Below are positions 5,482 through 52,447 of a DNA stretch of 64,000 nt, one piece after another. Position 1 is the first letter of the stretch. Each line of letters begins with the position of its first letter. Origin of the DNA: Candidatus Falkowbacteria bacterium (lineage in GTDB: Bacteria; Patescibacteriota; Patescibacteriia; Patescibacteriales; UBA12075); NCBI GenBank assembly GCA_043801965.1, contig JAZDLN010000032.1, positions 1,638 to 65,637 on the forward strand, read 5' to 3'. The notes under the pieces were generated by a model. The model had not been told where the DNA came from. It made no database searches and saw nothing but the letters and a program-made list of their open reading frames with translations. The translations under genes and the position numbers were made by a program.

Positions 5482-5538
5482 CAAGGAGGCAGAATTAATA
5501 CTTCGTCCTTAAAAGCCCAGCCAAACCGAGGAGAATTT

Positions 5539-5766: not shown

Positions 5767-5792
5767 TAAGACGTAAAAAAGGAGAGAGACAA

Positions 5793-6011: not shown

Positions 6012-6018
6012 ATTATCG

Positions 6019-6043
6019 ACCCGCTTTAAAACAGCGGGTTTTT
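6019..6043 (+). terminator. Intrinsic terminator, hairpin shared with convergent copA
   Basis: acccgct-ttaaaac-agcgggt followed by TTTTT. Confidence 0.7.
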
Positions 6044-8234: not shown

Positions 8235-8243
8235 AAGCTTAAA

Positions 8244-8382
8244 TTATCAATTATCAATTTACAATTTTCAATCAATGATTTAATTTTCAATTTCCATTTT
8301 TTGTTTCCGTAAGCAGTAACCGGCAATGAAAATTAAAAAATTGAAAATTCATTGAAAATTGATTATTGAGAATTGAAAATTA
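8244..8382. repeat. Imperfect AT-rich palindrome of about 140 bp built from TTGAAAATT/CAATT words
   Basis: Left arm 8244-8300 pairs with right arm 8325-8382. It fills the gap between the HMA-fusion gene stop and the copA start. Confidence 0.7.
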
Positions 8383-8416
8383 AACGTTAGAGTATTTTAT
8401 TTATTTGTTTTGAAAA

Positions 8417-12926: not shown

Positions 12927-13623
12927 AAAAAATGTTCCCGGACATATGGCCATAATAATGGACGGCAACCGGCGCTGGGCCCGGGAGCGCAATCTCTCCA
13001 CTCTTGAAGGCCATCTTAAGGGCTACAACAAGATGAAAAGCGTGCCGGAGTGGTTCTTTTCACGCGGCGTGGAAATAATTTCTTTGTTCGCGTTTTCCAC
13101 CGAAAACTGGAATCGCGGACGCGATGAGGTCAATTATCTCATGAAACTTTTAAGAAGGGCCCTTAAAGATGATTTTGAAGAATATAACCAGCGGGAGTAC
13201 AGGCTTGTCATAAGCGGTCGGATTAACGAATTGCCGGGGGACTTGCCGGAAATATGCGCTGACGCGATGATAAAAACCAAGGATAATTCGAAGGGCACGC
13301 TTAATATTTGCCTGAATTACGGCGGCCGGGCGGAGATCGTCGATGCCATCCGCAAGATGATAAAGAATAAAATAGAGATCGAACAGGTGCACGAAGGCAT
13401 GCTCCGGAAATACCTTTACCACGGCGATTTACCTGATCCGGATATGATCATCCGCACCTCCGGTGAATACCGTTTGTCCGGCTTTCAGCTCTGGCAGTCG
13501 GCTTACAGCGAATTGATGTTTTTGAAAAAGTACTGGCCCGAATTCGAAAAAGCCGACGTTGATATTATTCTGGAGGAATATGCCGGCAGAAAGCGAAGAT
13601 TCGGAGGAAACGAAAGTAAATGA
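12904..13623 (+). CDS. uppS: Isoprenyl transferase (undecaprenyl-diphosphate synthase)
   Basis: 239 aa. HMAIIMDGNRRWA, FAFSTENWNR and RTSGEYRLSGFQLWQ. Confidence 0.9.
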   Translation: MDTNKDNKKNVPGHMAIIMDGNRRWARERNLSTLEGHLKGYNKMKSVPEWFFSRGVEIISLFAFSTENWNRGRDEVNYLMKLLRRALKDDFEEYNQREYRLVISGRINELPGDLPEICADAMIKTKDNSKGTLNICLNYGGRAEIVDAIRKMIKNKIEIEQVHEGMLRKYLYHGDLPDPDMIIRTSGEYRLSGFQLWQSAYSELMFLKKYWPEFEKADVDIILEEYAGRKRRFGGNESK

Positions 13624-24334: not shown

Positions 24335-24403
24335 TTTATCCTCCCCGAGGGCAGTTTTAGTTCAGGGAGCCGGGAAGAGTTCAATCTTCCCGGAATTCCC
24401 CTT

Positions 24404-26014
24404 TTATGACATTGTTTCGCGCTTGAGTTTTTTGCCCATCATAGTGTAGAGCACCCGCTGCCAGGTAATCTTCTTTGTTCCGTCCTTGCGCTGCTCGATA
24501 TTCGCGACCTCGTTCGTTTCGAGAAAAACCGGTCCGCCCCAAAGGTACTCTATGCCCAGCATGGTATTTAAGATGAATTCCTTTACCAGGGCCTTTCCTT
24601 CGAAGTGGTGTTTAAGACAGAGGCCGTTTACTTCGGACGCTTCGTTCACGGTAATGTGCGGCGGATGATAGAGGACGTTGAAAAGCATTTGCCGGTAATC
24701 CACGGCTTTTCGGCTTTTTACGTACCAGACCCAGACCCGGCGGCCTTCGTCCAAATACCTGTCGGCCACGAAAAGATCGTTTTTCGTCACGAAACCCTGG
24801 TCCACGAAGGTGGACAGGAAACTGAAGTCACAGAGGCTTTCCCGGATCTTAAAGATAAATTCCTGACCCTGTCCGGTCCGTTCATTGAATTTTTCGCGCT
24901 CGATCGCGTCCGAAAGGCTTTTGTATTTGAGGGAATACTTGTTGGTATCGCCCAATTCCTCGATCCATTGGAATAAGCGGAGGCCCAGGGCGTAAGGATT
25001 AAGACCCACGCGCGGCATAGAGGTAACGCCGGCGTTAACGCGGGCAAAATCAACCTCGTGGCCCCGGATGCGGTCATCGGTCAAGAACAATTTTTCGTGC
25101 CAGTAAGATGCCCAGCCTTCGTTCATGATCTTGGTTCGGATCTGCGGCTGGAAAAAAGCCGAAGTTTTCCGCACCACTTCCATTACCGCCTTCATCCAGG
25201 CGTTCTTACCCTGGTTCAAAAACTGCGAATTCTTCATGACGTATTGGATCGGATCGAGTTTTTGCGACTGCGGGCTCTCCTTGCAGTAGCTGCTGTATTT
25301 GGCCGGCATTTCCGGCCAGACCTGGTTGACGGCGTGGAGAAACGCGTTTTCTCCGTCCGTCCGGTTGTACTCCTCGATCCATTTCATGTAGGTCTGCTGG
25401 CGCGAATTATCGTTTTTGAATTCAGCGATGGTTTGCAGGAATATATCGAAGAAATAGTCGATTTTACCGAGTTTTTTCGGGGTTTCGCGGGAATCGGTCC
25501 TGGATAGTTCCCCCCAGTAATCCACCAGATTGTCCATGCCGCGCGTAAACTCGATAACGTAATCGACCCACCGTCCGTGCTCTCTTCTTAAATTAGCGAT
25601 CAGCCGCTTATCGGACAGCGCCTCGCCGCAAAAGTCGTAATCCCAGGTGTTGCGGAAATAATGGTTCTTCCGGAAAAAATCGATATGTCCGAGGACGTGA
25701 TAGAAGATCATGACGTTAAGCCAGTCCGGATTATTATCGTTATAGAACGAAATGGCCGGACGGGTGTTGATCACGGTCTCGTAGGGGTTAGAGGGATAAA
25801 GCTCGTATTTGCCCCTGCCCTGGAGCACTTCGATATCGTGCACCCAGTAATCATAGAGCGTCGGGATCATGATCTTCGGGGATAGCTCTACGAGGTCGCG
25901 GTTGGTAACTATGTATTCCAGGGTTTCGTCATTGACGTCAAGCCCGGCGTCCACGGCCCTCTTCTTGCATTCTTCCATTATACCTTTGGTGTGTTGGTCG
26001 ATTAACTTCGACAT
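24404..26014 (-). CDS. spoVR: SpoVR family protein
   Basis: 536 aa. Size and sequence style of SpoVR/YcgB (HVLGHIDFF, NEGWASYWH). Starts 10 nt after the DUF444 gene. Confidence 0.8.
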   Translation of the reverse strand: MSKLIDQHTKGIMEECKKRAVDAGLDVNDETLEYIVTNRDLVELSPKIMIPTLYDYWVHDIEVLQGRGKYELYPSNPYETVINTRPAISFYNDNNPDWLNVMIFYHVLGHIDFFRKNHYFRNTWDYDFCGEALSDKRLIANLRREHGRWVDYVIEFTRGMDNLVDYWGELSRTDSRETPKKLGKIDYFFDIFLQTIAEFKNDNSRQQTYMKWIEEYNRTDGENAFLHAVNQVWPEMPAKYSSYCKESPQSQKLDPIQYVMKNSQFLNQGKNAWMKAVMEVVRKTSAFFQPQIRTKIMNEGWASYWHEKLFLTDDRIRGHEVDFARVNAGVTSMPRVGLNPYALGLRLFQWIEELGDTNKYSLKYKSLSDAIEREKFNERTGQGQEFIFKIRESLCDFSFLSTFVDQGFVTKNDLFVADRYLDEGRRVWVWYVKSRKAVDYRQMLFNVLYHPPHITVNEASEVNGLCLKHHFEGKALVKEFILNTMLGIEYLWGGPVFLETNEVANIEQRKDGTKKITWQRVLYTMMGKKLKRETMS

Positions 26015-26024
26015 TGTCGACCTC

Positions 26025-27374
26025 CTACTCTGACAGTATTGTTTTAATGCCTTCGATCAAACGCGGTTCTTCGGCGTCTTCGGGCATGGAATCAAGGCGG
26101 ATCAGCTTCGGATATTCTTTGAGCAAGTTGGATTTTTTGACGTATTTTTCAACTTCCGTCGATCCGTCGCCGTTTCTGTTCACCACGGTAATGCCGACCC
26201 GGTTGACGTAGCTCATCATTTTTTTGAGTTCCGGCACCGCTTCCTTGCCCTCAGCATCCCAGTCGTCGCCGTCCGTACCGTGGAAAACATAGATATTGTA
26301 TTCCTGGGCCAGATTCTCTTTTTCGGCGATCTCGTTAACCAGCTTATAGCCCGAGGACACTTGCGTTCCGCCGGCAACCTTCGAGTTGTAGTAGGTAAAA
26401 AAATCCGGAACTTCCTTGGCGGAGGTATCGTGCAGAATGAACCGGCATTCAGCCAGGTGTTCGTACTGGTAAAGCAGAAAGGCGTAGATCATGACATGCT
26501 GGCTCACCACTATCTGGGTGCGTTTTCCCGTCATCGAGCCGGAATAATCGCGGACAAAGAAGATCATGGCCGGAGATTCGAAAACCTTTTCGCGGGAAAG
26601 TATCCGATAGATCATGTCTTTCGGCGACACGATCAGCTGTTCCGTATCGACGTTCTCGGGGTCGATATTATCCAGCGCTATGTTGGTTTCTATGATCTTC
26701 CGCAGCGAAGCCTTCTTATCGAGAAATTGCCCGAAACCCCGGTTGCGGTCGGTCAGGTCGTATTTGATGCGGGTACTCGGTCTTTTTTTCGACTTTTCCT
26801 GCAGATGCGGCAGGGAGAATTTTTCCGTCAGCACCCGGCCGAGCTCATAGGCTGACTGCTCGATGCCGTGGTTGGTTTCCTCTCCCTGGCCCGGACCGGC
26901 GCCGCTGCCCTGTTCGCTTTGGTCTATCGGCTGTTCGCCGATAACCTCTCCTTCTTCGCCCTTGCCTTGCCCGCCGGCCCCTTCTTCCTGCTCCGAGGCT
27001 TCCGGATCGTGGATGAACTTTTCCTCGGTCGTGGTCGGCACGACTATGACTCTCTGACCGCTTCTTCCTGGTTTTACCAGGCGTCCGATCCGTATTTTTT
27101 CGGGAAAGCCGTCCTTTGTCCGCTGTTTGTCGTGACCCAGAAGATCGTCAATGGACTTGATATCAAGAGACCGATTTTGTTCGGCATGCATATTAAGAAG
27201 ACGGCTTTGATCGCTATTCGCCGGACCGTATAACCCGGGGACCGGTTTAGGAGCCGCCGGCGGCAGACTATGGTCGCCGCCTACTTCTATTTCGGAGAGC
27301 ATTCTTTTTCTTTTATCTTCCGAGCTTCTATCGGCAAAGCGCCGATAGACGCGTTTAAGCTGCTTCTTGTCCAT
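26025..27374 (-). CDS. DUF444 family protein (YeaH/YhbH-like, vWA-type fold)
   Basis: 449 aa. FFVRDYSGSMTG MIDAS-like motif and an acidic/Gly-rich insert EEGAGGQGKGEEGE. Confidence 0.8.
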   Translation of the reverse strand: MDKKQLKRVYRRFADRSSEDKRKRMLSEIEVGGDHSLPPAAPKPVPGLYGPANSDQSRLLNMHAEQNRSLDIKSIDDLLGHDKQRTKDGFPEKIRIGRLVKPGRSGQRVIVVPTTTEEKFIHDPEASEQEEGAGGQGKGEEGEVIGEQPIDQSEQGSGAGPGQGEETNHGIEQSAYELGRVLTEKFSLPHLQEKSKKRPSTRIKYDLTDRNRGFGQFLDKKASLRKIIETNIALDNIDPENVDTEQLIVSPKDMIYRILSREKVFESPAMIFFVRDYSGSMTGKRTQIVVSQHVMIYAFLLYQYEHLAECRFILHDTSAKEVPDFFTYYNSKVAGGTQVSSGYKLVNEIAEKENLAQEYNIYVFHGTDGDDWDAEGKEAVPELKKMMSYVNRVGITVVNRNGDGSTEVEKYVKKSNLLKEYPKLIRLDSMPEDAEEPRLIEGIKTILSE

Positions 27375-27439
27375 AAACCCTCCTTAATAGATAAACGGCC
27401 GGGAAACCTAAAAGCGGCATTCCCGGCCTTGTTGACGTC

Positions 27440-29518
27440 CTATTTTTCGTCGTCCTGGGTGCAGAAGTACTCGATCGTCTTCTGCGCGCAGGTCTTGCAG
27501 TATCCAAGCCCCTTTTGTTCAGCGGGCCGCATCATGGTCGTTATCATCCGGTCGTACAATTTCTGGTTCTCCTCGTTGGTACGGTTGGCCAAAGCTCCGA
27601 TAAGGCTGCCGGCGCCGGCGATGTCCGATTTCAGGCGCACGTCCGTGACGGCCTTGACCAATTCAAGATTGTCCATGAAATCGTAGTTCGGATCGACCGA
27701 AATTTTTTGGCCGTAGATCTTGCGGATCGAGGTCCGGAAAGTTTCCCGCTGCTCCTCGGTTTTTAAGCCCAGCCGTTCTTCGACCGACTTTATGAACCGT
27801 TCGTCGATCTTCATGGCCTTAAGCTCGCCGGTTTGCGGATCCTTGTATTTCCACATCTTGTCCGGACCGAGGTTTTCCGCGTCGATGCCGATGATCATAT
27901 TGACGTAGTTCATGACGTCTTTGCGGATGGCCAGAGGTTCGTCCATATAGGCGTTAAACATCTCCGTCATGATCCGTTCCCGGTAAAGCCCCTTGGCCGT
28001 CTTGATGTCATCCAGGAATTTTATCCGGTCGTTGTTGTCGGATACGTAATCCAGGACAACGCGTTCGAGCGCCGTAAATACGTCGTGAGCGAAGAGGCAT
28101 TTTCCCTTGTTGGTCGCCGAGCTTTCGTTTAAGATCTGCATCGCCCGGCCCAGGTTGCGCTGGCCGAAACCTTTCTGGCCGAAATGATCCATCGGGTTGG
28201 CTTTCTGGTTCAAGGTGTCAATCACCTCGGCCAAAGCCTTGACGGATTTTTCGCCGGCAACTTCGCCGGCCGCCAGTTTCATCATCTCGATCGGATCGAG
28301 CTTTTCGGCTTGCGGCAGGCGCATAAGGACCGCGGCCACGGAAGCGGCATAGATAAGATTCGGGTCTTCGTGCAGAGGTTCGCTTTTGAGCGTCTTTCTG
28401 TCCCGGTCGCCGATCGAATAGCGCGTGAGATCGTACTGGAGCTTGTAGTTGGTATTATGGGAAACGTAGCAGACGCGGCAGCGGTCGATGATCGGGGATT
28501 GCGCCTTGTCGGCCAGGAAGTTCGCGAATTCGGAATTGTTCGAAGTGGCGATAATAAGGGTATCGATCGGCCATTTATAGCCGTCGATCTCGATGCAGCG
28601 GTTCTGGATGACGCCCAGGTATACCTGGACAAGGTCAAGCTTGTTCTTGTAGATTTCGTCAGCGAAATGGATTCCGCCGCCGGCTACGCGGGCTAAAGCG
28701 CCGCGCCGCAGGTCGAAGCGGTAAGGGTTGTTCGTGTCGGTAATGTGGAGCAGACGCTGGATCGATTCCTCGCCTAAGAGGTCGACGGCCGACGAAGTGA
28801 TCTTGTCCTTGGCCGGATATTTTCCGGTAACTGTCCCCAGGCTTTCGCTTAAGGGTACCGGAAAAGTACGGATATAACCGAGCATCTTATTGATGTCGCC
28901 TTTGGCGTGCTCGCGGATACTTTCCCAGATATAGCTCGTGCAGGCGCCCAAAGGTCGGTAATTCTCGTAAAGTTTATCGATCTGTTTTTCGTTAAATCCG
29001 CACTGGCACAGGAACTCCCGGTTCTCGGATCTGTTTTCAAAAAGGTTCATGGCCAGGATCATCGGATCCTCGTAAGTCTGCGATTCGATCGTCTTGATCC
29101 GGCCGTATGATCCGAGCTCCCCGACGTTCGTGAATTTAAAGGAATAACGGCGATTGCCCGGCTCTGCCAGGAATTTCCGGTATTTGCCGCACAGGAACTC
29201 AACGAAAAAGGTCTTGCCGTTTCCCGGTTCGCCGATCAGCACGAAGGCCATCTCTTTGGAAGATCCGTTCTCGGCCGCGTCCTTTATGAAAGACACGAGG
29301 CTGTTGACCTCGTCGTAGAGGCCGATGATGTGCTTTTTGTCCTTGCGGAAAATATTATAATCGAAAGTGTCCATGCCGTTTACCTGGACATCTTCAAGTC
29401 CAGCTCCCAAAATCATGCGGGATATCCCCTGGAAAGCGTTTTCGAAAATTCGCTCCCCGGAGATAATGGCGGCAATGTGATCATACAAGGTGTTGCCTTC
29501 AAGCGACTTTGCGGTCAT
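27440..29518 (-). CDS. prkA: PrkA family serine protein kinase / AAA+ ATPase (YeaG-like)
   Basis: 692 aa. Walker A GEPGNGKTFFVE and Walker B GGIHFADE. SD AAAGGAGAAAAATC precedes the ATG. Confidence 0.9.
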   Translation of the reverse strand: MTAKSLEGNTLYDHIAAIISGERIFENAFQGISRMILGAGLEDVQVNGMDTFDYNIFRKDKKHIIGLYDEVNSLVSFIKDAAENGSSKEMAFVLIGEPGNGKTFFVEFLCGKYRKFLAEPGNRRYSFKFTNVGELGSYGRIKTIESQTYEDPMILAMNLFENRSENREFLCQCGFNEKQIDKLYENYRPLGACTSYIWESIREHAKGDINKMLGYIRTFPVPLSESLGTVTGKYPAKDKITSSAVDLLGEESIQRLLHITDTNNPYRFDLRRGALARVAGGGIHFADEIYKNKLDLVQVYLGVIQNRCIEIDGYKWPIDTLIIATSNNSEFANFLADKAQSPIIDRCRVCYVSHNTNYKLQYDLTRYSIGDRDRKTLKSEPLHEDPNLIYAASVAAVLMRLPQAEKLDPIEMMKLAAGEVAGEKSVKALAEVIDTLNQKANPMDHFGQKGFGQRNLGRAMQILNESSATNKGKCLFAHDVFTALERVVLDYVSDNNDRIKFLDDIKTAKGLYRERIMTEMFNAYMDEPLAIRKDVMNYVNMIIGIDAENLGPDKMWKYKDPQTGELKAMKIDERFIKSVEERLGLKTEEQRETFRTSIRKIYGQKISVDPNYDFMDNLELVKAVTDVRLKSDIAGAGSLIGALANRTNEENQKLYDRMITTMMRPAEQKGLGYCKTCAQKTIEYFCTQDDEK

Positions 29519-37744: not shown

Positions 37745-39292
37745 TTATGGGTTTAAAATATTATTTATAGTTTCATTTAACTCATCGTCAGCGGTTGAGG
37801 TCGCGGTTGTTTCCGGGGCGTCGGCTGCGTTATCGTCAGTTTCCGTTTCCGCCGCGTAGATCTCGCTTAGAGGTTCGCCGACTTCGTAGAGAGCCATTAT
37901 TTTTGGGGTGATCGTAATAACGTTTTCCCAGCGGTAGCCCATGTCTTCGAAAATTTGGCCGGAAGCGATCGCCCTTCTTTTGCCGTTGTCTATGACATAA
38001 ACGGCCGGCGAAGCGCTTGATTTTATGAGTTCGCCATCGCCGAAGATAGCCGGTTCCACGGTTTTATACCCGGCCAGTTTTTCCGGAGTTTCCGGAGTGA
38101 TCGCCTTGCCCTTGAATTTAGTTTTTAAAAGCACGGCATCCCAAAGCGGCGCCTTAGTCCCGTCGCTTACCCAGTAAATTCCGCCGGTGGTTTTATCCTG
38201 GAGCAAGGCGCCGGTCGGATAAGATGTCGTAGCGGTCAGGGGAATACCCTCGCGGTAAGCGTTAATATCTTCCCAGCTCGCGTTCATAACCTCTTCCGGG
38301 TTATAGCCGATCTTCCGGAAAGCTTCGGTGCTGTCGAATCCGCGTCTGGTATCATCAACTAAAAGAAAGATCGTGCCCCGGGGGGAGCGAACCAGCGAGT
38401 ATTGCGGGAATTTTATGGGCGCGCCCTTGGGATAACGGTCTAATTCGCTTTTTCCCACCTGGAGGACTTTTTTAATATCAAAGCGGCTGGTTAAAGCGCC
38501 TTTGCTTAAAAACGGACGTTTTTGGCCTTTTTGTATCAGCCAGACACCGGCTTCGCCTTTAACCTGGAGCAAACTGCCGTTCGGGTAAGTGAACGTAAAA
38601 TAACGCATCCAAAGCTTGTGGAAATTAAAGTTGCCGTTATAAACGTGCGGAGTGTAATTATAAAGGGCCGCGGTGGCGTTATTGGCCGGGGTAACGGACT
38701 GGGACGGCCGCCCGGTATTCGTGATCGTATAAGTATTGCCGGCTTTATAGGAGTAGAGATGCGGGTTGGTGACGTAATCAAAAAACTGCAAAGCCGCGGA
38801 ATTTACCTGTTTCCCGAAGCCCTGCCAGCGGGAATTGCAGCCGCCGCCGTCCGGACAGCCGTAGCCTGTCGCCCAGTCAAGCTGCCTCGGGGTAGGGGAG
38901 GTATCATCAATAAGGCTCTGCTCTTTTTGCAATAAAACGAGAAGCAGGCGGGGGTTTATCCGGGCCGGTTTGCATTTTATCTTTCTTTCGGCTTCGGTCG
39001 GGTTGGAGCTCATCTCAGCGTCGCCGCAATCGTAGTTATTAACGGCGGCATCATAGATTATCTCCGCGGCGGTTTTGATCTTGCCCTCGAAATTAGCGGT
39101 TTTATAGCGGGCTAGATAGCCGCCCTGGTTATCGAGAAACGCCTGGATTTCAGAGAGGGTCATGGTGCCCGAGTCGAGCATTTCCGCGTCGCTTATTATG
39201 TTATTGGGATTGAATTCGGCGGCTCCCGCTCCATTAAAAGCGAGACCTAAACCAATCGCAATAATACTCAATAAAAAATACTTTTTAGTCAT
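37745..39292 (-). CDS. Secreted hypothetical protein
   Basis: 515 aa with signal peptide. The mature N-terminus FNPNNIISDAEMLD... is followed by Cys pairs, and the C-terminus is an acidic tail. Confidence 0.55.
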   Translation of the reverse strand: MTKKYFLLSIIAIGLGLAFNGAGAAEFNPNNIISDAEMLDSGTMTLSEIQAFLDNQGGYLARYKTANFEGKIKTAAEIIYDAAVNNYDCGDAEMSSNPTEAERKIKCKPARINPRLLLVLLQKEQSLIDDTSPTPRQLDWATGYGCPDGGGCNSRWQGFGKQVNSAALQFFDYVTNPHLYSYKAGNTYTITNTGRPSQSVTPANNATAALYNYTPHVYNGNFNFHKLWMRYFTFTYPNGSLLQVKGEAGVWLIQKGQKRPFLSKGALTSRFDIKKVLQVGKSELDRYPKGAPIKFPQYSLVRSPRGTIFLLVDDTRRGFDSTEAFRKIGYNPEEVMNASWEDINAYREGIPLTATTSYPTGALLQDKTTGGIYWVSDGTKAPLWDAVLLKTKFKGKAITPETPEKLAGYKTVEPAIFGDGELIKSSASPAVYVIDNGKRRAIASGQIFEDMGYRWENVITITPKIMALYEVGEPLSEIYAAETETDDNAADAPETTATSTADDELNETINNILNP

Positions 39293-39350
39293 ATAAAAGC
39301 AAAAAAAGACACGATTTATAATGTCCGTAAATTAATTTTTTATTATTTTT

Positions 39351-39379
39351 ATTATACTATAGATCGCTTTTTTGTACAA
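39351..39379 (-). promoter_or_regulatory. Promoter TTGTAC-17-TATAAT (minus strand)
   Basis: Reverse complement of 39374-39379 and 39351-39356. Confidence 0.5.
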
Positions 39380-39385
39380 ATAAAA

Positions 39386-39408
39386 AACCCTCAGTATCAC
39401 TGAGGGTT
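39386..39408. terminator. Terminator hairpin after the Fn3 protein gene
   Basis: aaccctcagt-atc-actgagggtt flanked by A6 and T5. Confidence 0.8.
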
Positions 39409-39436
39409 CGTTTTTAAAAAGAACAATTTATTTCGT

Positions 39437-40765
39437 TTAGGGCATGGATAAGATGAACATTTTGTTATTCTGCGAACGGGCAAAACTCCAATCTAATACT
39501 TTCCCTGCACCTAGACGATTATCAATGTCGCCACGCTCTTCCGGTCCGGCCGGGGAGTCTCCTGGTGTTGGCACCGGGTGCGTATTGTAGTAATAGCCGT
39601 CTTGAACATAGGTGATGTCCAATGCGTCCACTTTTATTTCCGAGAATAATGGTGGTATGGGATCATCCACCGTACCTTGCGTATTCCCGGGCAAGTGGCA
39701 AGTAATATACGGTGCGCTTTCCAGCCCGTCAACCATATTAGAGACGGAAATGAAAACACCCGTAAAAAGATTAATACCGCCGTACATCGCCACTGCGGCA
39801 TTTATTTCCACGGCATATTCTGTGGTTCCCGCCGGGAGGAGGGTATCAATAAAAGCCGCTCCGTCCGGACTTTCCAGATCTTCCAGGGTCCGGGCAACGC
39901 GGAAAATAACGCCGTCGCTTTCAGCCGGCGGTATCCATCCGAAAATAGCCTTATAACGGTTGCCCACTGTACTTGCTTCCAGTCTCTGGAGATAAGCGTG
40001 CATTATGGGTTCAACAATGGGGCTCTGGGCCGCTATGGCTATGTTCGTAAATTCGTAGCTGCCCGCAGCTTGGCCACAGTAAACCTTGAGTTCGGCGGCC
40101 ATAACCGGATCCCGGAGGACGATTTCGATAGAATGTCGTTTCCATTCAGAATTAACAAATACAGTCCTTTCGGTGGAGTGGGAAACGCCGTCTTCGTCTT
40201 CTATTCTCAGCGAAATCAAACTGTCGGCACCGGCCAGATCGGTGAATTTAACATCAAATTCAACCAACAGTACCTGTCCGACATTGGCGTTTATTCCGGT
40301 TTTCTTCCAATACACCTCTTTCGGATCAATCGGTTCCGTTTCGACGTTGATATTAATAACCCTTAACGAGTGGTTAATCCCGTCATTGTCCGGATCTGTT
40401 CCGGTTAAATAGGATTCATAGGAATCATTCAAGGTGTTTACGGGCGCTGTACCGAGCATTACTTCGTTAGAATCTCCGCTTTGTTCGCTGGTGCCTACAA
40501 CGTAGGCTCGACAAACGAAAAAGTAGGTATTATTCTCATCTAAATTGGGAATGGTACAGGTAGTGGGCGTGCCTTCCCATCTTGGGTCGGAATAATTGTA
40601 GTTTGCTCCAGCCGATCTTATAAATATCCTATAACCGATTTCTCTGCCCTGCGGATCGGGAGAATTTGCGTCCCAGGCGAGGGTTACATCGGCGGCGTTT
40701 GCGCCCATTGCGAAGAAACTGCCGAGCGCCAGAAAAAAGATCAGAATTACGGAAATTTTTTTCAT
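39437..40765 (-). CDS. Secreted protein with N-terminal fibronectin type III-like domain
   Basis: 442 aa with signal peptide. VTLAWDANS...YRIFIRS...NNTYFFVCRAY matches the Fn3 pattern. Confidence 0.6.
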   Translation of the reverse strand: MKKISVILIFFLALGSFFAMGANAADVTLAWDANSPDPQGREIGYRIFIRSAGANYNYSDPRWEGTPTTCTIPNLDENNTYFFVCRAYVVGTSEQSGDSNEVMLGTAPVNTLNDSYESYLTGTDPDNDGINHSLRVININVETEPIDPKEVYWKKTGINANVGQVLLVEFDVKFTDLAGADSLISLRIEDEDGVSHSTERTVFVNSEWKRHSIEIVLRDPVMAAELKVYCGQAAGSYEFTNIAIAAQSPIVEPIMHAYLQRLEASTVGNRYKAIFGWIPPAESDGVIFRVARTLEDLESPDGAAFIDTLLPAGTTEYAVEINAAVAMYGGINLFTGVFISVSNMVDGLESAPYITCHLPGNTQGTVDDPIPPLFSEIKVDALDITYVQDGYYYNTHPVPTPGDSPAGPEERGDIDNRLGAGKVLDWSFARSQNNKMFILSMP

Positions 40766-41008: not shown

Positions 41009-44000
41009 ATGAAAAAACTATTCGCAATCATCGCTTTAAGCGCTCTCTTGCCGCTTAACCCGGTCTTAGCCGCTACCGCCAGAATTGTGGTGCCGGACAA
41101 CGTAGGACTAAACGAAAGTTTTAGTGCTCAGGTCAATATTGAAGATGCTGAGGATTTGCATGCGTCACGGTTCCTTATAGATTTCGACAAAGATCTTCTG
41201 GAATTCAATGACGCGACCATAGGTGATCTCATGGATCTCGGTTGCGATAATTTAACTCCCGGGTTTCAAACAACTGACACTGGTTTACATTTTTACGTGG
41301 ACAGGGGTAGTTGTGAGGGGGCTTATGGTAACGGTACGGCCGTGAACTTAAATTTTACAGCTAAGGGAGAATCGGGGACCTCTGGATTCAATTTTATAAC
41401 TGAAGGAGAAGAAAAAAGTTACCTTAATGATTCAGAGGGAATGCCCATTTCTACTATTTGGGAAAACAGCCAAACTTTAATCGATGAACAGGTTATTCCG
41501 GAAGAACCGGTGGTTGATGTTATGATTACGCCGGCCGATCAAACCGTAAGCGTAGGGGACAACGTTGCTGTAGCCGTAACCGTCGAAGACGCAATCGATC
41601 TTAATACAGTCGATTTAGCCTTAACTTTTGACAATACGATTTTGACCTTTGTGGGCGTAACTCCGTCAGAAACTTTAAATGATAATGGCTGGACTCTGTA
41701 TGATCCATTCGAGTATGAATCCGGATTAATCATGGTTTCAATGGACGGTCTTGAAGGTACCCCGATAAATAACAATCAAACTCTCGTTATATTCAATTTT
41801 ACTGCCATCAATTCGGGAACATCTTATCTTAATTTCGAACCTGATTTTAATTTTTTAAACTTTGGCGATTTAGCAGCTTTATGGAATAATGGAAACGTCA
41901 CGGTTAACCAAGTAGTTGCGCCGCCAGTTGAGGATACAATGGAGGTGCGTTTCTCGGAACTTTACGAACTTGATTACGGCTCCAGCTCCCCCTATTGGAT
42001 AAAATTGTACAGACCGGTAGACGTATCTTACTTTTTTGCAGAATTTACTTATAACACAGATGTACTAAGCTATAAAAATTTTGAATCAGGTATTACAATG
42101 GCTCCTGAATATGAAGATTGGATGCTCGACGTATTCGAATCCACACCCGGAACCGTAACAGTAATGATGGACGGAACAGGTGCGCTGCCGTTATCCAATC
42201 CTACCGAGGATATACTTATGGTGGCGTTGGATTTTGAAGCAGTCGGATACGGCATGAGTACCTTCGACTTTACCGAAAATCCCGACACCTGCCTAGTGAC
42301 TAACGAAGCGTTTGAACCTTACGTTGTCGAATGGGAAAACAGAGAAGTGACAGTTACTGATAACCAGGCACCGATCATCAATATAATTTTACCGACAAAC
42401 GAAGACGTGTATTATTACGAAAACGCTGATCCGACCATCACCGTATCCGGAACAGCCACTGATAACGTCGGTTTCGTGAGTTTCGGCAGTACTATAAGCA
42501 ATGACGCACCAGGCGGCGTTGGCGGAGGTGGGCACGGATTGCCGACACCCGACCCAGAGATTAACTTCATCTACGATTTCACGCTATACGAAGGCGAAAA
42601 CATCATAACAATAAGCGGCACTGACGAAGCTGGTAATTCCGCGAACGATATTATCACTATCTATTATTCTTTACCCGATACGACCGCTCCGGTCATAACC
42701 TTAGTCGGCGAAAACCCTGTTAATATCTATGTCGGCGATACTTATAACGATGCCGGCGCGACCGCCACGGACGATACAGACGGTAATATCACCGCTAATA
42801 TCATTGCCGTTAATCCGGTAGATACAGATACTGTCGGGACTTATACGATAACCTATAACGTCAGCGATGCGGCCGGGAACCATGCTACCGAGGCGAGTAG
42901 AACCATTAATGTCCAGGATCCCCCCCCGCCTCCGCCTCCATTACCCGAGGACACAACCGCTCCGGTTCGAACCAACGGAGCGCCTACGGGTACTTTAAGC
43001 GCTGGTACGGCGAACGCTAACCTGACCTTGACTACCGATGAACCGGCTACTTGCCGATATTCGACAACTGTTAGCACTCCTTATGAAGATATGACCGGTA
43101 CCATATCAGCGGCTATGACCACCGCGCATACGCTCGCGCTTAGCGGATTAGCCAATGATACCAATTATAAATATTACGTCCGTTGCGCCGACGAAAGCGG
43201 CAACTTCAATACCGATGATTATGAGATTTCTTTCTACGTCGATAAACCGGCCGCGCCCGCAGGTAGCGGCGGAGGCTCTTCCTCCGGAGGCGGCGGCGGA
43301 GGAGGGGGTGGAGGCGGCAGTAGCGCTTCATCCGTAAGTAACCCTGACTCCGGCAACGGAGTGGGAGGCGGCTCCATTGATCAGACGGACGAAGAGCTTC
43401 TCGCAACTCCCGAAAATACTTCGATTCAAGCCGATAACGAAGAAAGAGCGGAGAATAACGTCGATGAACATCAAGGCAACACCAGTTTAATCGGTGCTGA
43501 TGGTCCGACGGTGGAAAAGGTTACGGCACATGAAGCCGGGCAAATTCACGCCAATGCGGATTTTGTTGAATTAAACGACACCACCAGGAAAATTTACGAA
43601 AAAATTATCACGGGAGCGCCCGAACTTTCTGACAATACAAAATACGCGATCGCTTATTTTATCCATCAGGGCACGGCCACTACTCAAAGATTGGGAGCGG
43701 GGGAGAGGGCGGGAGCTCTCAACTCATATATAGCCGCTTTCGGCAAATATCCGGTATTCGCGAATGAATGGCAGGATGTTGTGAAGATCGCGAACGGCCG
43801 CTGGCCCACCGAACGCAGTGAAAGCGCCGAAAAAAGAGCCAAGACCTCCTTTGAATTGATATATAAAAGACCGGCTGATATGAACCAGCAAAATGATAAC
43901 GCCGCGGTCACGGTCATGGCCTACGGTCTCCGTCCCGCTCAGAGGAATACGGAAAGCGAAAAAGCGGCCATAAAAACCTTTGAACATATCTTTAACGGGT

Positions 44001-44065
44001 CTCCGAAGACCGCCATTGACTGGGATATAGTCCGGGCCATAGCTTATTCGGGAGCCATAAGATAA
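41009..44065 (+). CDS. Large secreted multidomain surface protein (cohesin-like modules, Ig-like domains, poly-Pro and poly-Gly linkers)
   Basis: 1018 aa with signal peptide. Repeated cohesin-like modules ([33 protein letters not shown]), an Ig-like module ([32 protein letters not shown]), a PPPPPPP linker and a G/S-rich linker. Confidence 0.7.
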   Translation: [1018 protein letters not shown]

Positions 44066-44097
44066 AATTAAATAATAAGATAAATTAATAACAAAAA

Positions 44098-44125
44098 ACC
44101 GGGGTCCTGTTAAGGAACCCGGTTT
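44098..44125. terminator. Bidirectional terminator
   Basis: accggggtcc-tgttaa-ggaacccggt with flanking A6 and T4. Confidence 0.75.
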
Positions 44126-44153: not shown

Positions 44154-44516
44154 TTATTTAACCGTTACCGACACCCTGTCTTTTACGCCCATGTCTATCG
44201 CCACCTTGTCTCCATCTTTGATCTTGCCCTCGATAATATCGAGCGCGAGCTCATCTAATATCATGTTCTGGATTATGCGTTTAAGAGGACGGGCGCCGAA
44301 AGTGACGTCATAGCCTTTATCCGCAAGCATCTTCTTTACCTTGGGCGCGATCTTAAGCCTTATATTCTGGTCTTTGAGGCGGTTTTCAAGCTTAATGAGT
44401 TCAAGATCGACGATCTTCGTGAGCGTATGCTTGTCCAGGCTCTTGAATATGACGATTTCATCGATCCGGTTTAGGAATTCAAGTTTGAAATGGTTCTTAA
44501 GGATCGTGTCGATCTT
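44154..44516 (-). pseudogene. clpB: clpB 3' portion (120 codons) continuing in frame after an internal TAA
   Basis: Manual translation directly after the stop at 44517-44519 gives KIDTILKNHFKLEFLNRIDEIVIFKSL...FGARPLKRIIQNMILDELA...VSVTVK*. This is the conserved ClpB D2 small domain. The ORF track missed it because it has no long Met-initiated ORF. Confidence 0.85.
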
Positions 44517-46781
44517 TTACTTCATCTCGTCGGAACGCATTTTAGCCGCTTCGACCGCGTCGCCACCGTCGGAGAAACCGATCGAGTACTGCTTAATGAC
44601 CTCGTTCCCCAGATTAGAGGTCATGATCACGATCGTATTCTTAAAGTTGACCATCCGTCCTTTCGAATCGGTGACCCGGCCGTCATCCAGTACCTGCAGG
44701 AGTATATTGAATACTTCCGGATGGGCTTTCTCTATCTCGTCAAAGAGAACGACGCTATAGGGCCGGCGCCTGATCTTTTCGGTCAATTGCCCCCCTTCGT
44801 CGTGGCCGACGTAACCGGGAGGCGAGCCGATGATCTTGGCCACTGAATGCTTTTCCATGAATTCGCTCATGTCTATCCGGATCAGGGCCGCGTCATCGTT
44901 AAACATGAATTTAGCCAGCGCTTTCGCGAGTTCGGTTTTGCCCACTCCGGTCGGGCCGACAAAGAGGAAAGAACCGATCGGCCTCTGCTCTTCGCTTATC
45001 CCGGCTCTTGAACGCCGGATGGCGTTAGCCACGGATTTGATCGCGTCCGCTTGCCCCTTTACCCGGGAAGATAATTCTTCTTCGGCGCGGGCCAGTTTTT
45101 TTATTTCGGATTCGAGCATTTTCGAAACCGGAATCCCGGTCCAGCGGGAAACAACTTTCGCGATATCTTCTTCGTCGATCTCTTCTTTCAGTATCCTTTG
45201 GCCGCTTTTCTGTATCTTAAAAAGTTCGTCTTCGTTCTTTTTAACCTCTTTTTCCAGTTGAGGGATCTTCGAGTATCTGATCTCGGCCACTTCGGTAAGA
45301 TCGTCGCCTTTTCTTTCTATTATTTCCGCCCGGGCCTTAAGTTCGTCTATATCCTTTTTCGAGGCGCGTATCCGCGAGATGATCTCCTTTTCGTTGTTCC
45401 AATGCAATTCGATCTGACCGGCCTTTTCCTTTATTTGAGCCAGCTTCTCGTTAACATGCGCCAATTTGGCCGAGTTTCTTTTTTCTTTGATCAATCCGGC
45501 TTTTTCGATCTCGAGGCGTTTTATCTCCCTTTTTAATTCATCCAGTTCCTCGGGCATGGAATCGATTTCCATCCGGAGAGCGGAGGTCGCCTCGTCAACG
45601 AGGTCAACGGCCTTATCCGGCAGGAAACGGTCCGTAATATAGCGGGAAGAAAGTTTTACCGCCGCTATGATCGCGTCATCCGTGATTCTGACGCCATGAT
45701 GAACCTCGTATTTTTCCTTTATGCCCCTAAGTATCGCGACCGCGTCTTCCTGGTTCGGTTCGGCCACGTAGATCGGCTGGAAGCGTCTTTCCAGCGCTGA
45801 ATCGCGTTCGATATATTTCTGGTATTCCTTGGTCGTGGTCGCTCCGACGGCTTTAAGCTCGCCGCGAGCCAAAGCTGGTTTAAGCATGTTGGAAGCGTCC
45901 ATCGATCCTTCGGACGCTCCCGCGCCCACTAAAGTATGGAGCTCGTCGATGAACAATATTATTTTGCCGCCGTTGGCTTTTACCTCTTTCATGACCGCTT
46001 TCAGGCGATCTTCGAATTCGCCGCGGAATTTAGCGCCCGCCACCAAAGCGCCCAGGTCCAGGCTGATCAATTCCTTGTTTTTCAGGGTTTCGGGCACGTC
46101 GCCGGAAACGATCCTTTGGGCCAGGCCCTCGACGATAGCGGTTTTGCCGGTTCCCGCCTCGCCGATCAAAACCGGGTTATTCTTGGTACGGCGGGACAGG
46201 ACCTGCATGATGCGCCTGATCTCGTTATCCCGGCCGATCACCGGGTCAAGCTTTTTCTTGCGCGCCAGGTCGGTCAGGTTAATGGCGTATTTCTCCATGA
46301 CCTTATATTTAGTCTCGGGGTCGGGATTATCGACTTTCTGCGTACCGCGCAGCTTCGACAATATTTCCAATACGCTTTCATATTCAAGACCCAATCCGAT
46401 CAATATACCCTGGGCTTCGGTTTTAATTCCAATAAGCGCCAAGAGCAAATGCTCGGTCGAAATATATTCATCTCCCATCTGTTCAGCCTCTTTTTTCGAT
46501 CGTTCCAGAATCATGGCGACTTCCGCCGTGCCCTGGACGGTGCCCGCGGCCGAAACGGAAGACGATTTGGGAAGTTTTTCTATCCGGTCATAAACTTTTT
46601 GTTCGACCGCTTCGGGAGCGACTTTCAGTTTTTCCAGGATCGGCTTGACCAGGCTTTCGCTTTGGGTCAAAAGCGAAGCCAGAATATGCAAAGCCTCGAT
46701 CTGCATCTGTCCGTGATCCTGGGCGATTATCTGGGCGTTTATGATCGCTTCCTGTGATTTATTCGTAAATTTATTGAACAT
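44517..46781 (-). CDS. clpB: ATP-dependent chaperone ClpB, N-terminal 754 aa (truncated by an in-frame TAA)
   Basis: Clp N domain, NBD1 [15 protein letters not shown], a coiled-coil M domain and NBD2 [15 protein letters not shown]. The ORF ends at ...MRSDEMK*, about 120 aa short of full length. Confidence 0.9.
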
Positions 46782-46844: not shown

Positions 46845-46871
46845 TTAGCACTCAAAGCTCATGAGTGCTAA
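46845..46871. promoter_or_regulatory. CIRCE operator (HrcA-binding inverted repeat), perfect consensus
   Basis: TTAGCACTC-aaagctcat-GAGTGCTAA, located 64 nt upstream of the clpB ATG. Confidence 0.85.
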
Positions 46872-46875
46872 TTAT

Positions 46876-46904
46876 AATTTACAACAAAAGAATTTACGTG
46901 TCAA
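46876..46904 (-). promoter_or_regulatory. Promoter TTGACA-17-TAAATT for clpB
   Basis: Minus-strand hexamers at 46899-46904 and 46876-46881. CIRCE begins 4 nt downstream of the -10. Confidence 0.65.
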
Positions 46905-48643: not shown

Positions 48644-49516
48644 ATGAGTTCGGCAATCGGCATCGGTTTTGCTTTATCAGCCCTGATCTTCTGGGCAATG
48701 GGTGATTTTCTGATACAGAAATCAACGCGCCTGATAGGGAGCTGGAAATCATTGTTTGTAAACTGTGCCGTCGCCGTTCTGGCGCTGACCCCTTTCGTAA
48801 TTGGCCGCCTGTCAGGATTGTCAGCGGGAAACTGGCTCGTGCTCGGTGCACTCTGCGTGATAATAACGGCGGCCGCGATACTGGATTATGAGGCTCTTCG
48901 AAAGGGAAAATTCGCGGTGATCGAACCGATATTCGGGGTTGAGCTTCCCTTGACCGTGGTCTTGAGCGTTCTGATCGGAGGAGAACAATTATCTTTGATA
49001 CAGGTCTTTTTGATACTTTTGATTTTTTTCGGCCTCCTGGCTACGGCGATCCAGAGCAAGAAAATACTTCGTTTCATTTCTGATTTTAAATGGGAAGCAG
49101 GGGTCAAATACGCAATCTTTGCCGCGATCGGTATGGCCGCCGCAAATTTTCTAACCGGAATCGCCAGTCGGGGAAGCTCGCCCTTGGTCGCGGTTTGGGC
49201 CATGAACTTTTTTATCTTAACCGTGAGTTTTGTAATAATCGCGGCGCAAGGTAAATTAAGGGCTATTCCGCGCGATATTATTAATAAGCCCAAAGTGATC
49301 CTTGGTCAGGCAATATTCGATAATCTGGCCTGGGTATCATTCGCGTTCTCAACAACCTACATAGCCATCTCGATCACTACCGCGATCAGCGAAAGCTATA
49401 TCGCGCTCGCCGCAGCCATGGGTCTTTTGATCAATCAAGAAAAATTGCAAACCCACCAATTCTGGGGAGTGGCTATAGTCGTTACCGGCATTATAGCGTT
49501 GTCAATCGTGTCGTAA
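48644..49516 (+). CDS. EamA/DMT-superfamily transporter
   Basis: 290 aa, about 10 TM helices, with two-fold internal repeat architecture. Confidence 0.65.
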   Translation: MSSAIGIGFALSALIFWAMGDFLIQKSTRLIGSWKSLFVNCAVAVLALTPFVIGRLSGLSAGNWLVLGALCVIITAAAILDYEALRKGKFAVIEPIFGVELPLTVVLSVLIGGEQLSLIQVFLILLIFFGLLATAIQSKKILRFISDFKWEAGVKYAIFAAIGMAAANFLTGIASRGSSPLVAVWAMNFFILTVSFVIIAAQGKLRAIPRDIINKPKVILGQAIFDNLAWVSFAFSTTYIAISITTAISESYIALAAAMGLLINQEKLQTHQFWGVAIVVTGIIALSIVS

Positions 49517-49526: not shown

Positions 49527-50735
49527 ATGGAAAATATCAATATACTGGGAATAAACATAAGTTCGATCGACAAAGATTCGCTTTGGAAAAAGATCGGAGG
49601 GTTTTTGTCCGACGGCGGCCAGCATTATATCGTTACCCCCAATCCGGAAATAATTCTTGCGGCGCAAAAGGACGAAGAATTCTGGCATATCCTTAACCAC
49701 GCTGATCTCGCCCTACCGGACGGCATCGGACTTAAATTCGCCGCGTGGGCGTTAGGTTTTAATTTAAAACGCGTGACCGGAGCTGATCTCACCGCAGAGA
49801 TACTTAAAATGGCCGAAGACCAACATCGCAAAATAGCCGTATTAAACTGGCGCAAAAGCCTTTCCCGAAAGGAGGATATCGAAGCTATTTTGCGGAGCAA
49901 ATATCCGAAACTGGATTTCGCGATCGAAGAGATCGATCGGGAATGGAGCATGCCCTTTTATCAGAACATCAATGTTTTCCAACCGGAAATAATATTCGTG
50001 GCTTTGGGCGCTCCCTGGCAGGAAAAGTTCATTTACGGCAACCTGCCGAAAATGCCTTTCGTAAAATTAGCCGTCGGCGTGGGCGGCGCTTTCGATTTTT
50101 TAACCGGTAGGATAAAGCGGGCCCCCGGGATCGTGCGCGCGGCTGGTTTCGAATGGTTATGGCGCGTTTTTAGAGAAGTCGGGGGGCGGCGGCTTTGGCG
50201 CCTGCGCAGAATATACGACGCGGCAGTCATATTTCCGCTTAAATTCATCAAATGGCGCTTTATCCAGCCGTTTTTGTACCGGCCAAGCGTCGCCTGCCTG
50301 CTCTTTAAAAATGAAAACGGTAAATATAGAATTTTACTGACTGAACGGAAGGATGAACCCGGCCATTGGCAACTGCCGCAAGGCGGAACCGACGGGGAAG
50401 GCGTAGAAACCGCCGGCACGCGGGAATTATCGGAAGAACTTAATACTAATAAATTCAAGCCCCTGGTAACTTTCAAAAATTTATGGAAATATAAATTCAA
50501 CGACAAAACCGGTAAATATAAAACAAACAGACACATCGGTTACCGGGGCCAGAAACAGAGCCTGTTTATCGCGGAATTCATAGGCAAGGACGGGGATATT
50601 AAACCAAATTACTGGGATCACGCCGGGTGGAAGTGGGTCGACAGCGAAAAACTGGTCGAAGAAGCGCATGAGGTAAGGCGGAAGGCGGCGAAAATATATT
50701 TGGAAAAATTTAATAAAACGATAAACAAGCAATAA
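49527..50735 (+). CDS. WecG/TagA/CpsF-family glycosyltransferase fused to a C-terminal NUDIX hydrolase domain
   Basis: 402 aa. N-terminal TagA-like region (YIVTPNPEII...LALPDGIGL...GAPWQEKF). C-terminal Nudix box GGTDGEGVETAGTRELSEELN. Confidence 0.7.
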   Translation: MENINILGINISSIDKDSLWKKIGGFLSDGGQHYIVTPNPEIILAAQKDEEFWHILNHADLALPDGIGLKFAAWALGFNLKRVTGADLTAEILKMAEDQHRKIAVLNWRKSLSRKEDIEAILRSKYPKLDFAIEEIDREWSMPFYQNINVFQPEIIFVALGAPWQEKFIYGNLPKMPFVKLAVGVGGAFDFLTGRIKRAPGIVRAAGFEWLWRVFREVGGRRLWRLRRIYDAAVIFPLKFIKWRFIQPFLYRPSVACLLFKNENGKYRILLTERKDEPGHWQLPQGGTDGEGVETAGTRELSEELNTNKFKPLVTFKNLWKYKFNDKTGKYKTNRHIGYRGQKQSLFIAEFIGKDGDIKPNYWDHAGWKWVDSEKLVEEAHEVRRKAAKIYLEKFNKTINKQ

Positions 50736-50741
50736 AAAAAT

Positions 50742-50930
50742 ATGAAAATGCGTTTAAAAAAATATATTTATCTTATAAACGACATAACCAACATTATCTT
50801 AAAAAAAGACAGAGAGGAAGAGGCGGCGCAAGCGGCGGATAACGTCAAAAAACTTCGGACCGCGCTTATCGCGGCCGGTTTTCTTCTTTTGGTATCGCTT
50901 ATATTCAATGTTTATTTTCTAATCGGTTAA
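50742..50930 (+). CDS. Small C-terminally anchored membrane protein, hypothetical
   Basis: 62 aa with a single TM helix LIAAGFLLLVSLIFNVYFLI. Confidence 0.4.
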   Translation: MKMRLKKYIYLINDITNIILKKDREEEAAQAADNVKKLRTALIAAGFLLLVSLIFNVYFLIG

Positions 50931-50980
50931 ATACTGTACAAAAAATTTGTACAGCTATTAATTAGCTTAATTATAAAAAT

Positions 50981-52447
50981 ATGACCCAAATAAGAACACG
51001 CTTCGCGCCCAGCCCGACCGGATTCCTGCATATCGGCGGCCTGCGGACAGCTTTATTTACGTATCTTTTAGCTAAAAGCGCCGGTGGAAAATTTATTTTG
51101 CGGATAGAAGACACGGACCAGAAAAGAAAAGTTGAAAACGCCCAGGAAAAATTATTGGAAATACTGGAGTGGTCCGGCCTTAAATTCGATGAGGGGCCGC
51201 ATGTCGGCGGCGGATACGGGCCGTATATCCAGAGCGAGCGCCAGGCGATTTATGATAAATACCGGGATGAACTTTTAGCCAAAGACGGGGCTTACCATTG
51301 TTTCTGCGCGCCGGAAAGATTAGAAAAAATGCGCGCGGACCAACAGGCGGCCAAGCAGGCGCCGCGTTATGATCGCCATTGCCGCGATTTAAGTCCGATT
51401 GAGGTGGAAAATAAAATCAAAGCCGGGGAAAAATACGTTATCAGGCAAAAAATGCCGCTAACAGGCGAAGTGATAGCCGTTGACGAACTGCGCGGACCCA
51501 TAAAATTCCGGGCTGAAGAATTAGAAGACCATGTGCTTATAAAATCAAACGGCATCCCGACTTACCAATTCGCGGTCGTAGTGGATGACCATTTGATGGA
51601 AATAACGCATGTTACCAGAACTGAAGAATGGCTGCCGTCATTTCCGAAAAATATCTTATTGTACAAGGCTTTTGGCTGGGAACCGCCGGTTTTCGCGCAT
51701 TTTCCCTTTGTCGCCAACAAAGGCGGAGGAAAATTAAGCAAACGGCAAGGGGATGTGGCGGTCGAAGATTTTCGCGACAAGGGCTATTTGCCGGAAGCGC
51801 TTTTAAATTTTAATGTTTTACTCGGTTGGCACCCCGAAGGCGATAATGAAATACTTTCTTTAAATGAAATGGAAAAGCTTTTTGACTTTAAGAATGTGGG
51901 CACCAGTTCGGCGGTTTTTGACATCGATAAGCTCGATTATTTCAATGGTTATTATATCAGGCAAAAGCCGCTGGATGAATTAGTCGAATTATGCCGGCCG
52001 TTTTTGGAGAAAAATCTGGCTTTAACCGATAACCCCCGTAAAAAATCCAAAGAGTTTATTAGCGGCGTAGTCAGACTGGAACAGGAAAGACTAAAAAAAC
52101 TCTCTGAAATCGAGGGATTAACAAAATTATTTTTTGTTGACAAGCTGGACACGGCCATGGTTCTTCTGCTTTTGCCCTGGAAAAAACTGACCGCCCCACA
52201 GGCGCGTGAAAACCTTAAGCTTATTGTCGGGCTTTTGGAAAAAATTCCGGAAGAAAACTGGACCAATGATTCCCTTGAAGAGGGGATAATGGGCTATCTT
52301 AAATCTAAAGAATTGAAGATAGGGGAATATCTTTGGCCGATGCGGGTGGCTTTGACCGGCGAAAAAGCCAGTCCCGGTCCTTTTGACGTGGCTGAGGTTT
52401 TGGGTAAAAAGGAAAGCCTGGAAAGAATAAAATCGATTACAGTTTAA
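50981..52447 (+). CDS. gltX: Glutamate--tRNA ligase
   Basis: 488 aa. HIGH motif (PSPTGFLHIGG) and KMSKS variant KLSKR. Confidence 0.95.
   Translation: MTQIRTRFAPSPTGFLHIGGLRTALFTYLLAKSAGGKFILRIEDTDQKRKVENAQEKLLEILEWSGLKFDEGPHVGGGYGPYIQSERQAIYDKYRDELLAKDGAYHCFCAPERLEKMRADQQAAKQAPRYDRHCRDLSPIEVENKIKAGEKYVIRQKMPLTGEVIAVDELRGPIKFRAEELEDHVLIKSNGIPTYQFAVVVDDHLMEITHVTRTEEWLPSFPKNILLYKAFGWEPPVFAHFPFVANKGGGKLSKRQGDVAVEDFRDKGYLPEALLNFNVLLGWHPEGDNEILSLNEMEKLFDFKNVGTSSAVFDIDKLDYFNGYYIRQKPLDELVELCRPFLEKNLALTDNPRKKSKEFISGVVRLEQERLKKLSEIEGLTKLFFVDKLDTAMVLLLLPWKKLTAPQARENLKLIVGLLEKIPEENWTNDSLEEGIMGYLKSKELKIGEYLWPMRVALTGEKASPGPFDVAEVLGKKESLERIKSITV

Follow-up and report, generated by a model that had tools for sequence, protein, structure and literature searches.

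A private in-frame stop codon in clpB of a Candidatus Falkowbacteria bacterium is probably a very recent nonsense allele

The clpB gene examined here lies on the minus strand (46781..44154) of a 64,000-nucleotide (nt) window, the whole stretch of DNA that was analysed, from an uncultured groundwater-type bacterium assigned to Candidatus Falkowbacteria (assembly GCA_043801965.1, contig JAZDLN010000032.1, positions 1,638 to 65,637 of the forward strand); positions below are those of the window. In the list of open reading frames (ORFs), an ATG at 46781 opened a frame of 754 codons (44520..46781) that was closed by a TAA at 44519..44517, codon 755. Past this codon the frame stayed open for 120 further codons (756-875, 44157..44516) until the next TAA at 44156..44154, which stands where 875-amino-acid (aa) orthologues end and is the ancestral stop of an 875-codon gene. 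The read-through length of 875 aa was also the modal length (40 of 119; range 874-900) in the homologue set used throughout, namely the 119 full-length sequences of 874-900 aa among the matches listed with the read-through protein as query. The layout given in an earlier note on this DNA, in which a single in-frame TAA at 44517-44519 leaves a 754-aa ORF and read-through would restore a normal 875-aa ClpB, was confirmed.

The 754-aa part contained the Pfam domains Clp_N, AAA, AAA_lid_9 and AAA_2, with Walker-type motifs at residues 207-214 (GEAGTGKT), 279-282 (DELH), 609-616 (GPTGVGKT) and 681-687 (DEIEKAH); Clp_N and two AAA+ modules with Walker A and B motifs, as expected of a ClpB, were present. 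The AAA_2 domain was covered only to profile position 135 of 166, indicating that nucleotide-binding domain 2 (NBD2) is cut and that the stop falls inside it, not at a domain boundary. Codons 1-754 thus spanned Clp_N, NBD1, an M-domain of ClpB length and NBD2 up to the loop past sensor-1. The M-domain region (residues ~400-608) aligned end to end with residues 386-592 of Mycobacterium tuberculosis ClpB and 377-580 of Thermus thermophilus ClpB; ClpC chains aligned to the same query segment only from its position ~125 on, that is, over its last third. The long M-domain of a ClpB, a coiled coil of about 120-130 aa between NBD1 and NBD2, was present. TIGR03346 (ClpB) was the top NCBIfam match of the 754-aa product (model positions 1-726 of 853, 1089.7 bits). 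The protein of an intact relative (P0001) scored 1207.9 bits over positions 1-846 of the same model and missed the equivalog cut-off of 1232.1, so the name 'ClpB-like' appears safe and strict TIGR03346 equivalog status a near miss that falls short of the cut-off. Judged by its domain content, the gene is a ClpB-type Hsp100. The 120-codon tail encoded a complete ClpB_D2-small domain (PF10431, positions 1-81 of 81, E 1.6e-27), as the earlier note had recognised. The arginine finger, the sensor-2 GAR motif and D2-small, which a ClpB unites in one polypeptide with the preceding domains, were all encoded, but past the TAA.

Upstream of the gene, a CIRCE operator (an HrcA-type inverted repeat, TTAGCACTC-N9-GAGTGCTAA) was found with 0 mismatches at 46845-46871 on the minus strand, between promoter and start codon as in the HrcA-CIRCE regulon. 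It was the lone match in the window even when 3 mismatches were allowed, with 0.01 expected by chance. The operator directly followed the -10 element of a sigma-70-like promoter, TTGACA-17-TAAATT (46904..46876, minus strand; 10 of 12 matches). CIRCE was found at all nine related loci compared, where its arms were invariant and 5 of the 9 loop bases differed, and the promoter was unchanged in the relatives. The HrcA repressor was not seen among the window ORFs scanned. After the full-length ORF, an intrinsic terminator on the minus strand (44092..44120) consisted of a hairpin at 44120..44102 and a T-run to 44092; its position was conserved at the related locus L001, with changed bases within the stem. 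No terminator-like site was found on the minus strand between the two TAAs of clpB. The perfect operator, the promoter and the good terminator reported earlier were therefore all in place. That operator and promoter argue for ongoing selection did not follow, because these elements are identical in the relatives and the stop is too recent for decay, as described below. The integrity of CIRCE, promoter and terminator shows that they were constrained in the clade over the long term, but not that they have been since the stop appeared, and it is uninformative on present selection.

The closest relatives of the protein were P0001 and P0002, the ClpB of Candidatus Falkowbacteria bacterium RIFOXYB2_FULL_47_14 (OGF27956.1 / UniRef100_A0A1F5SN47), with 98% aa identity and found on at least 17 contigs from several samples. 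Nine loci of this sister lineage were compared (L001-L009, of which L001-L008 encode P0001). The window gene was colinear with all nine over 2628 nt, without indels and with 251-252 differences (90.4% nt identity). Codon 755 was GAA at all nine loci, and in the window its first base has changed, G>T (coding strand, window position 44519), the local codons being GAG ATG AAG TAA AAG ATC in the window and GAG ATG AAA GAA AAG ATC in the relatives. In the 119 homologues this position was occupied by Glu 88 times, by Asp 29 times, and once each by Asn and Ala; it belongs to a well-conserved motif, E-M-K/R-[ED]-K-I-D. A sense codon in relatives, which the earlier note had proposed to look for, was thus found in every sequence compared, and the 120 downstream codons that it had called intact and conserved were 95% identical at the protein level to intact orthologues (6 of 120 residues differing), so that their frame is not open merely by chance. 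The single 754-aa entry among the listed homologues was the window's own product (P0003, NCBI MFH0892273.1, 100% identical), annotated as 'AAA family ATPase', present on one contig of 65,703 nt and the lone member of its cluster. The degenerate pattern GARATGAAR-TRR-AARATHGAYNNNATHYTNAAR, which accepts TAA, TAG, TGA (or TGG) at codon 755, gave 0 matches in genome_contigs (one genome per species, 185,579 species) and 0 in metagenome_contigs (the JGI metagenome collection) in scans run without a positive control. Across the sequences compared, the stop at codon 755 is private to this assembly.

The stop was also very young. Compared with L001, codons 1-754 had a synonymous divergence (dS) of 0.50 and a ratio of non-synonymous to synonymous divergence (dN/dS) of 0.015, with 189 synonymous and 13 non-synonymous changes; codons 756-875 had a dS of 0.81 and a dN/dS of 0.044, with 38 and 10, respectively. 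The share of non-synonymous changes was higher in the tail than in the body (10:38 vs 13:189; Fisher p = 0.004). Relaxed selection in the tail was considered for this difference and rejected: when the tail aa differences from P0001 were polarised with 116 outgroup sequences, 4 of the 6 (residues 856, 859, 870 and 873) proved to have arisen in the sister lineage, whose gene is intact, and 5 of the 6 fell in the last 20 residues, which are variable. The window lineage itself contributed only H785 and, possibly, V866. On a neutral branch, approximately 70-115 non-synonymous changes were expected in the tail (about 283 sites x 0.25-0.4); no more than 2 were observed (Poisson upper limit 6.3), indicating that the stop arose within about the last tenth of the branch or is absent from the DNA. 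The tail contained neither an indel nor a second stop. The relaxed selection and secondary lesions that mark a pseudogene were lacking, which implies a very recent change, or an error; if the change is real, the tail looks intact because there has been too little time for decay.

Past the stop lie the last helix and strand of the NBD2 large subdomain and the whole of D2-small, which are left untranslated if termination is normal. This segment comprised FLNRID with Arg772 (44468..44466), then the beta-strand EIVIF, GARPL with Arg831 (44291..44289), and D2-small at residues 782-862 (44196..44438). From motif positions, and for Arg772 also from alignment to ClpC and ClpB structures, Arg772 corresponds to Arg747 of T. 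thermophilus ClpB, the NBD2 arginine finger, and Arg831 to Arg806, the sensor-2 arginine (PMC3940203). The R806A substitution almost abolished the ATPase activity of NBD2 in T. thermophilus ClpB (PMC3940203). Oligomerisation and chaperone activity were abolished by C-terminal deletions into D2-small of M. tuberculosis ClpC1 (PMC3527473), and the like is reported for C-terminal deletions of E. coli ClpB (PMC3527473, citing Barnett 2000 and Mogk 2003). As in a pseudogene, the stop stood at a position that is sense in orthologues and removed required residues. Since the arginine finger, the sensor-2 arginine and D2-small are all lost, the 754-aa product is most likely an inactive ClpB.

A further feature of the clpB product is an I-G-F tripeptide in a loop of NBD2 (S733-I-G-F736; 44574-44585, minus strand), whose I, G and F were invariant in 119 of 119 homologues. 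The loop aligned with the ClpP-docking ...GF... loop of Staphylococcus aureus and Bacillus subtilis ClpC, which were the top Protein Data Bank (PDB) matches for NBD2, and it is presumably 12 aa longer than in E. coli ClpB. Lack of the ClpP-docking IG[FL] loop separates ClpB from ClpA, ClpC and ClpX. With its M-domain of ClpB length and this loop, the clpB product may, like the engineered BAP, combine ClpB and ClpC features, as a natural hybrid that could dock on ClpP in Patescibacteria. Nothing on a ClpP-docking-type loop in such a ClpB was found in the literature.

Taken together, the locus probably carries a real, very recent and private nonsense allele of clpB. A single G>T transversion would have changed Glu-755 from GAA to TAA in this lineage, and ribosomes would be expected to stop at codon 755 as at any TAA, releasing a 754-aa protein without the last helix and strand of NBD2 (with R772), without R831 and without the whole D2-small oligomerisation domain. 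Such a protein would likely be inactive. The clpB locus would then have become a nascent pseudogene; alternatively, the consensus would have caught a loss-of-function allele that segregates in the population sampled. The 120 downstream codons, CIRCE, promoter and terminator would be perfect only for want of time to decay.

A less likely but serious alternative is a base-call, polishing or consensus error, in which the organism reads GAA, its 875-codon clpB is intact and the TAA is confined to the contig as deposited. Such an error would account for a single-base change that left tail, operator, promoter and terminator intact, and for a variant on one contig of one assembly in a gene under strong purifying selection; however, a real mutation of very recent origin would be expected to show every one of these features just as well. 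The local error rate also appeared to be low. Along 21 kb of synteny, 17 neighbour genes aligned full-length to Falkowbacteria orthologues without in-frame stops, and an error-prone assembly was rejected since no other gene among these 17 orthologue pairs was disrupted. None of the other same-frame ORF pairs in the window was a broken gene; those considered as such were antisense frames or adjacent complete genes (RecR; the ArsR / thioredoxin-like / permease trio). By our own estimate, about 1 in 20 random substitutions creates a stop. Pseudogenes normally make up 1-2% of genes. With a low consensus error rate and ~1 in 20 substitutions making stops, a nonsense codon made by error should be rarer a priori than a genuine young pseudogene or null allele. 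The preference for a real allele over an error therefore rests on a prior, not on a measurement. Of the options listed in the earlier note, error and recent nonsense mutation both fitted the observations and could not be separated by them.

Several points weigh against a real allele. The base may be miscalled; the TAA is known from the deposited consensus of one assembly, and for this strain the public collections queried yielded no further contig. Nothing was returned by exact look-ups of four proteins (the 754-aa product, P0003, the upstream radical-SAM protein and the downstream 1018-aa protein), and a DNA pattern of 40 nt, specific to the lineage and with N at the deciding base, had 0 matches in genome_contigs and metagenome_contigs. 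The hypothetical full-length protein with E755 was absent from a collection of 15 billion proteins searched by exact look-up. Neither recurrence scan for a stop at codon 755 had a positive control. Lastly, clpB is under very strong purifying selection in the clade (dN/dS 0.015), so a loss-of-function allele is somewhat unexpected.

Functional recoding, in which some ribosomes pass the TAA and yield (near) full-length ClpB from a leaky rather than null allele, is very unlikely. It could proceed by near-cognate read-through or by a stop-hop of peptidyl-tRNA-Lys from AAG(754) to AAG(756), and the stop does lie between identical Lys codons (AAG-TAA-AAG, 44514..44522, minus strand; AAA-GAA-AAG in relatives). 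In synthetic E. coli constructs, matched codons around a stop permit low-level in-frame hops in which 9 nt yield one amino acid (PMC5009743, citing Weiss 1987). An intact tail would also suit recoding, as would the base at +4, which is A and not the U that gives the strongest context (PMC5289835). By contrast, no natural in-frame stop-hop is known (PMC5009743), and the flanking Lys residues were ancestral (Lys at 754 in 90 and at 756 in 117 of the 119 homologues), indicating that the AAG-TAA-AAG arrangement is coincidental; at most, it might lend the allele a slight leakiness. UAA is recognised by both release factors, RF1 and RF2, and shows the lowest read-through of the three bacterial stops (PMC5289835). 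Among the 51 non-overlapping window ORFs of at least 100 aa, 43 ended in TAA, 6 in TAG and 2 in TGA, and TAA-A, the context of the internal stop, was the commonest stop tetranucleotide (22 of 51). The fold of the 141 nt around and after the stop was no better than that of shuffled controls (z = -0.44). None of the three tRNAs in the window, Lys(UUU), Thr(UGU) and Glu(CUC), was a suppressor. A stop at this codon was found in none of the 119 homologues and at none of the 9 sister loci, and the pattern scans had no match elsewhere. The lesion lacks every testable mark of programmed read-through, whether conservation, leaky context or stimulatory structure, and this third option of the earlier note could not be upheld. 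That the TAA is real and the allele leaky, with a few ribosomes supplying a low level of functional ClpB by near-cognate decoding or a stop-hop, is given slightly less credence still. If true, and if a stop-hop, AAG-UAA-AAG in clpB would be the first natural in-frame stop-hop.

It is more improbable still that clpB is a split gene, the 120-codon tail being made separately and the two polypeptides assembling as a functional ClpB. The tail ORF is intact, and co-transcription is expected because the sole terminator follows it; against this, codons 756-817 contained no in-frame ATG, GTG or TTG. The first in-frame start past the stop, ATG818, is already beyond the arginine finger, 36 residues inside D2-small; its product would have only 58 aa and was absent from the 15-billion-protein collection by exact look-up. 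No homologue among the 119 was split at this point. Reassignment of TAA to an amino acid in this organism, for which nothing speaks beyond the lone in-frame TAA, is effectively refuted, in line with the earlier view that a global code change is unlikely: TAA closed 43 of the 51 long ORFs, the 17 full-length orthologue alignments held no in-frame stop, and no tRNA in the window had a UUA anticodon.

Several other features of the window were recorded. The convergent neighbour of clpB (41009-44065, plus strand) encodes 1018 aa, with one Bact_surface_Ig-like domain as its sole Pfam match and with poly-Pro and poly-Gly/Ser tracts; it was 67% identical to a 1096-aa orthologue, the flanking genes being 92-99% identical, and it looks like a fast-evolving surface protein. 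In otherwise perfect synteny with the sister locus L002, gene content differed at 48644-49516, 50735-50981 and about 39292-39437 of the window and at 5962-6714 and 17638-18227 of L002. An EamA transporter gene was present in the window and not in L002; a gene for an MBL-fold protein (Lactamase_B / Anti-Pycsar Apyc1-like), which lies between a 62-aa ORF and gltX in L002, was missing in the window, as were the 50-aa and 145-aa ORFs of L002. A 218-aa ORF at 12270-12926 (plus strand) matched only the first half of MFS_1 (positions 4-175 of 347), and its end overlapped the start of uppS (12904-13623); it may be what is left of a truncated transporter, or else an MFS protein of half size. In this reduced Patescibacteria genome, a PrkA / SpoVR / DUF444 (YeaH-like) / PrkA cluster at 22055-29518 (minus strand) contained two paralogues of PrkA, 759 and 692 aa long. 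A metal/redox cluster at 1466-9853 comprised an ArsR-like regulator, a small thioredoxin-like CxxC protein and a permease, all in one frame by chance, together with two DsbD_2 membrane proteins, one of them fused to an HMA domain, and an HMA-P-type ATPase.

A real allele and a base error are both mundane, and the import of the finding is mostly one of annotation: MFH0892273.1 should be taken for a truncated clpB, whether pseudogene or error, rather than for a short Clp ATPase of a new type. Should the mutation be real, a Falkowbacteria population tolerates the loss of a CIRCE-controlled disaggregase, which would add a small data point on gene loss in the reduced genomes of Patescibacteria. Nothing relevant on ClpB in Patescibacteria or on pseudogenes in Falkowbacteria was found in the literature. 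The locus also serves as a negative example for scans, since an intact ORF past an in-frame stop is evidence for recoding only where relatives have conserved the stop.

Compared with known systems, the locus most closely resembled the intact ClpB gene of RIFOXYB2_FULL_47_14, which likewise has 875 codons without indels, lies between a radical-SAM gene upstream and a gene for a large surface protein downstream, has the very same promoter and CIRCE arms, and is followed by a terminator in the same place. It differed in having TAA where that gene has GAA (Glu) at codon 755, besides 251 nt differences that were nearly all synonymous. Programmed read-through cases and synthetic stop-hops share with it an in-frame stop followed by a conserved-looking ORF, and matched flanking codons (PMC5009743); however, programmed cases are conserved in relatives and usually have leaky stops or stimulatory elements, whereas the clpB stop is private, a UAA, in ordinary context and without structure. 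Hsp100 proteins that were truncated at the C-terminus by engineering (E. coli ClpB deltaC, Barnett 2000 / Mogk 2003; M. tuberculosis ClpC1 deletions) also lack D2-small, and in them self-association and chaperone activity were abolished (PMC3527473). The truncation in the window, known from its sequence, is deeper, as the helix with the NBD2 arginine finger and the last strand of the large subdomain are lost as well. Ordinary nonsense pseudogenes of bacteria and metagenome-assembled genomes are alike in that one substitution turns a codon that is sense in all orthologues into a stop, catalytically required residues lie downstream and recoding signals are lacking. The clpB case differs from them in being too young for a second lesion or for relaxed selection, and hence cannot yet be told from a sequencing error. 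The lesion is best filed as an ordinary premature stop of an already known kind, whether nascent pseudogene, null allele or base error.

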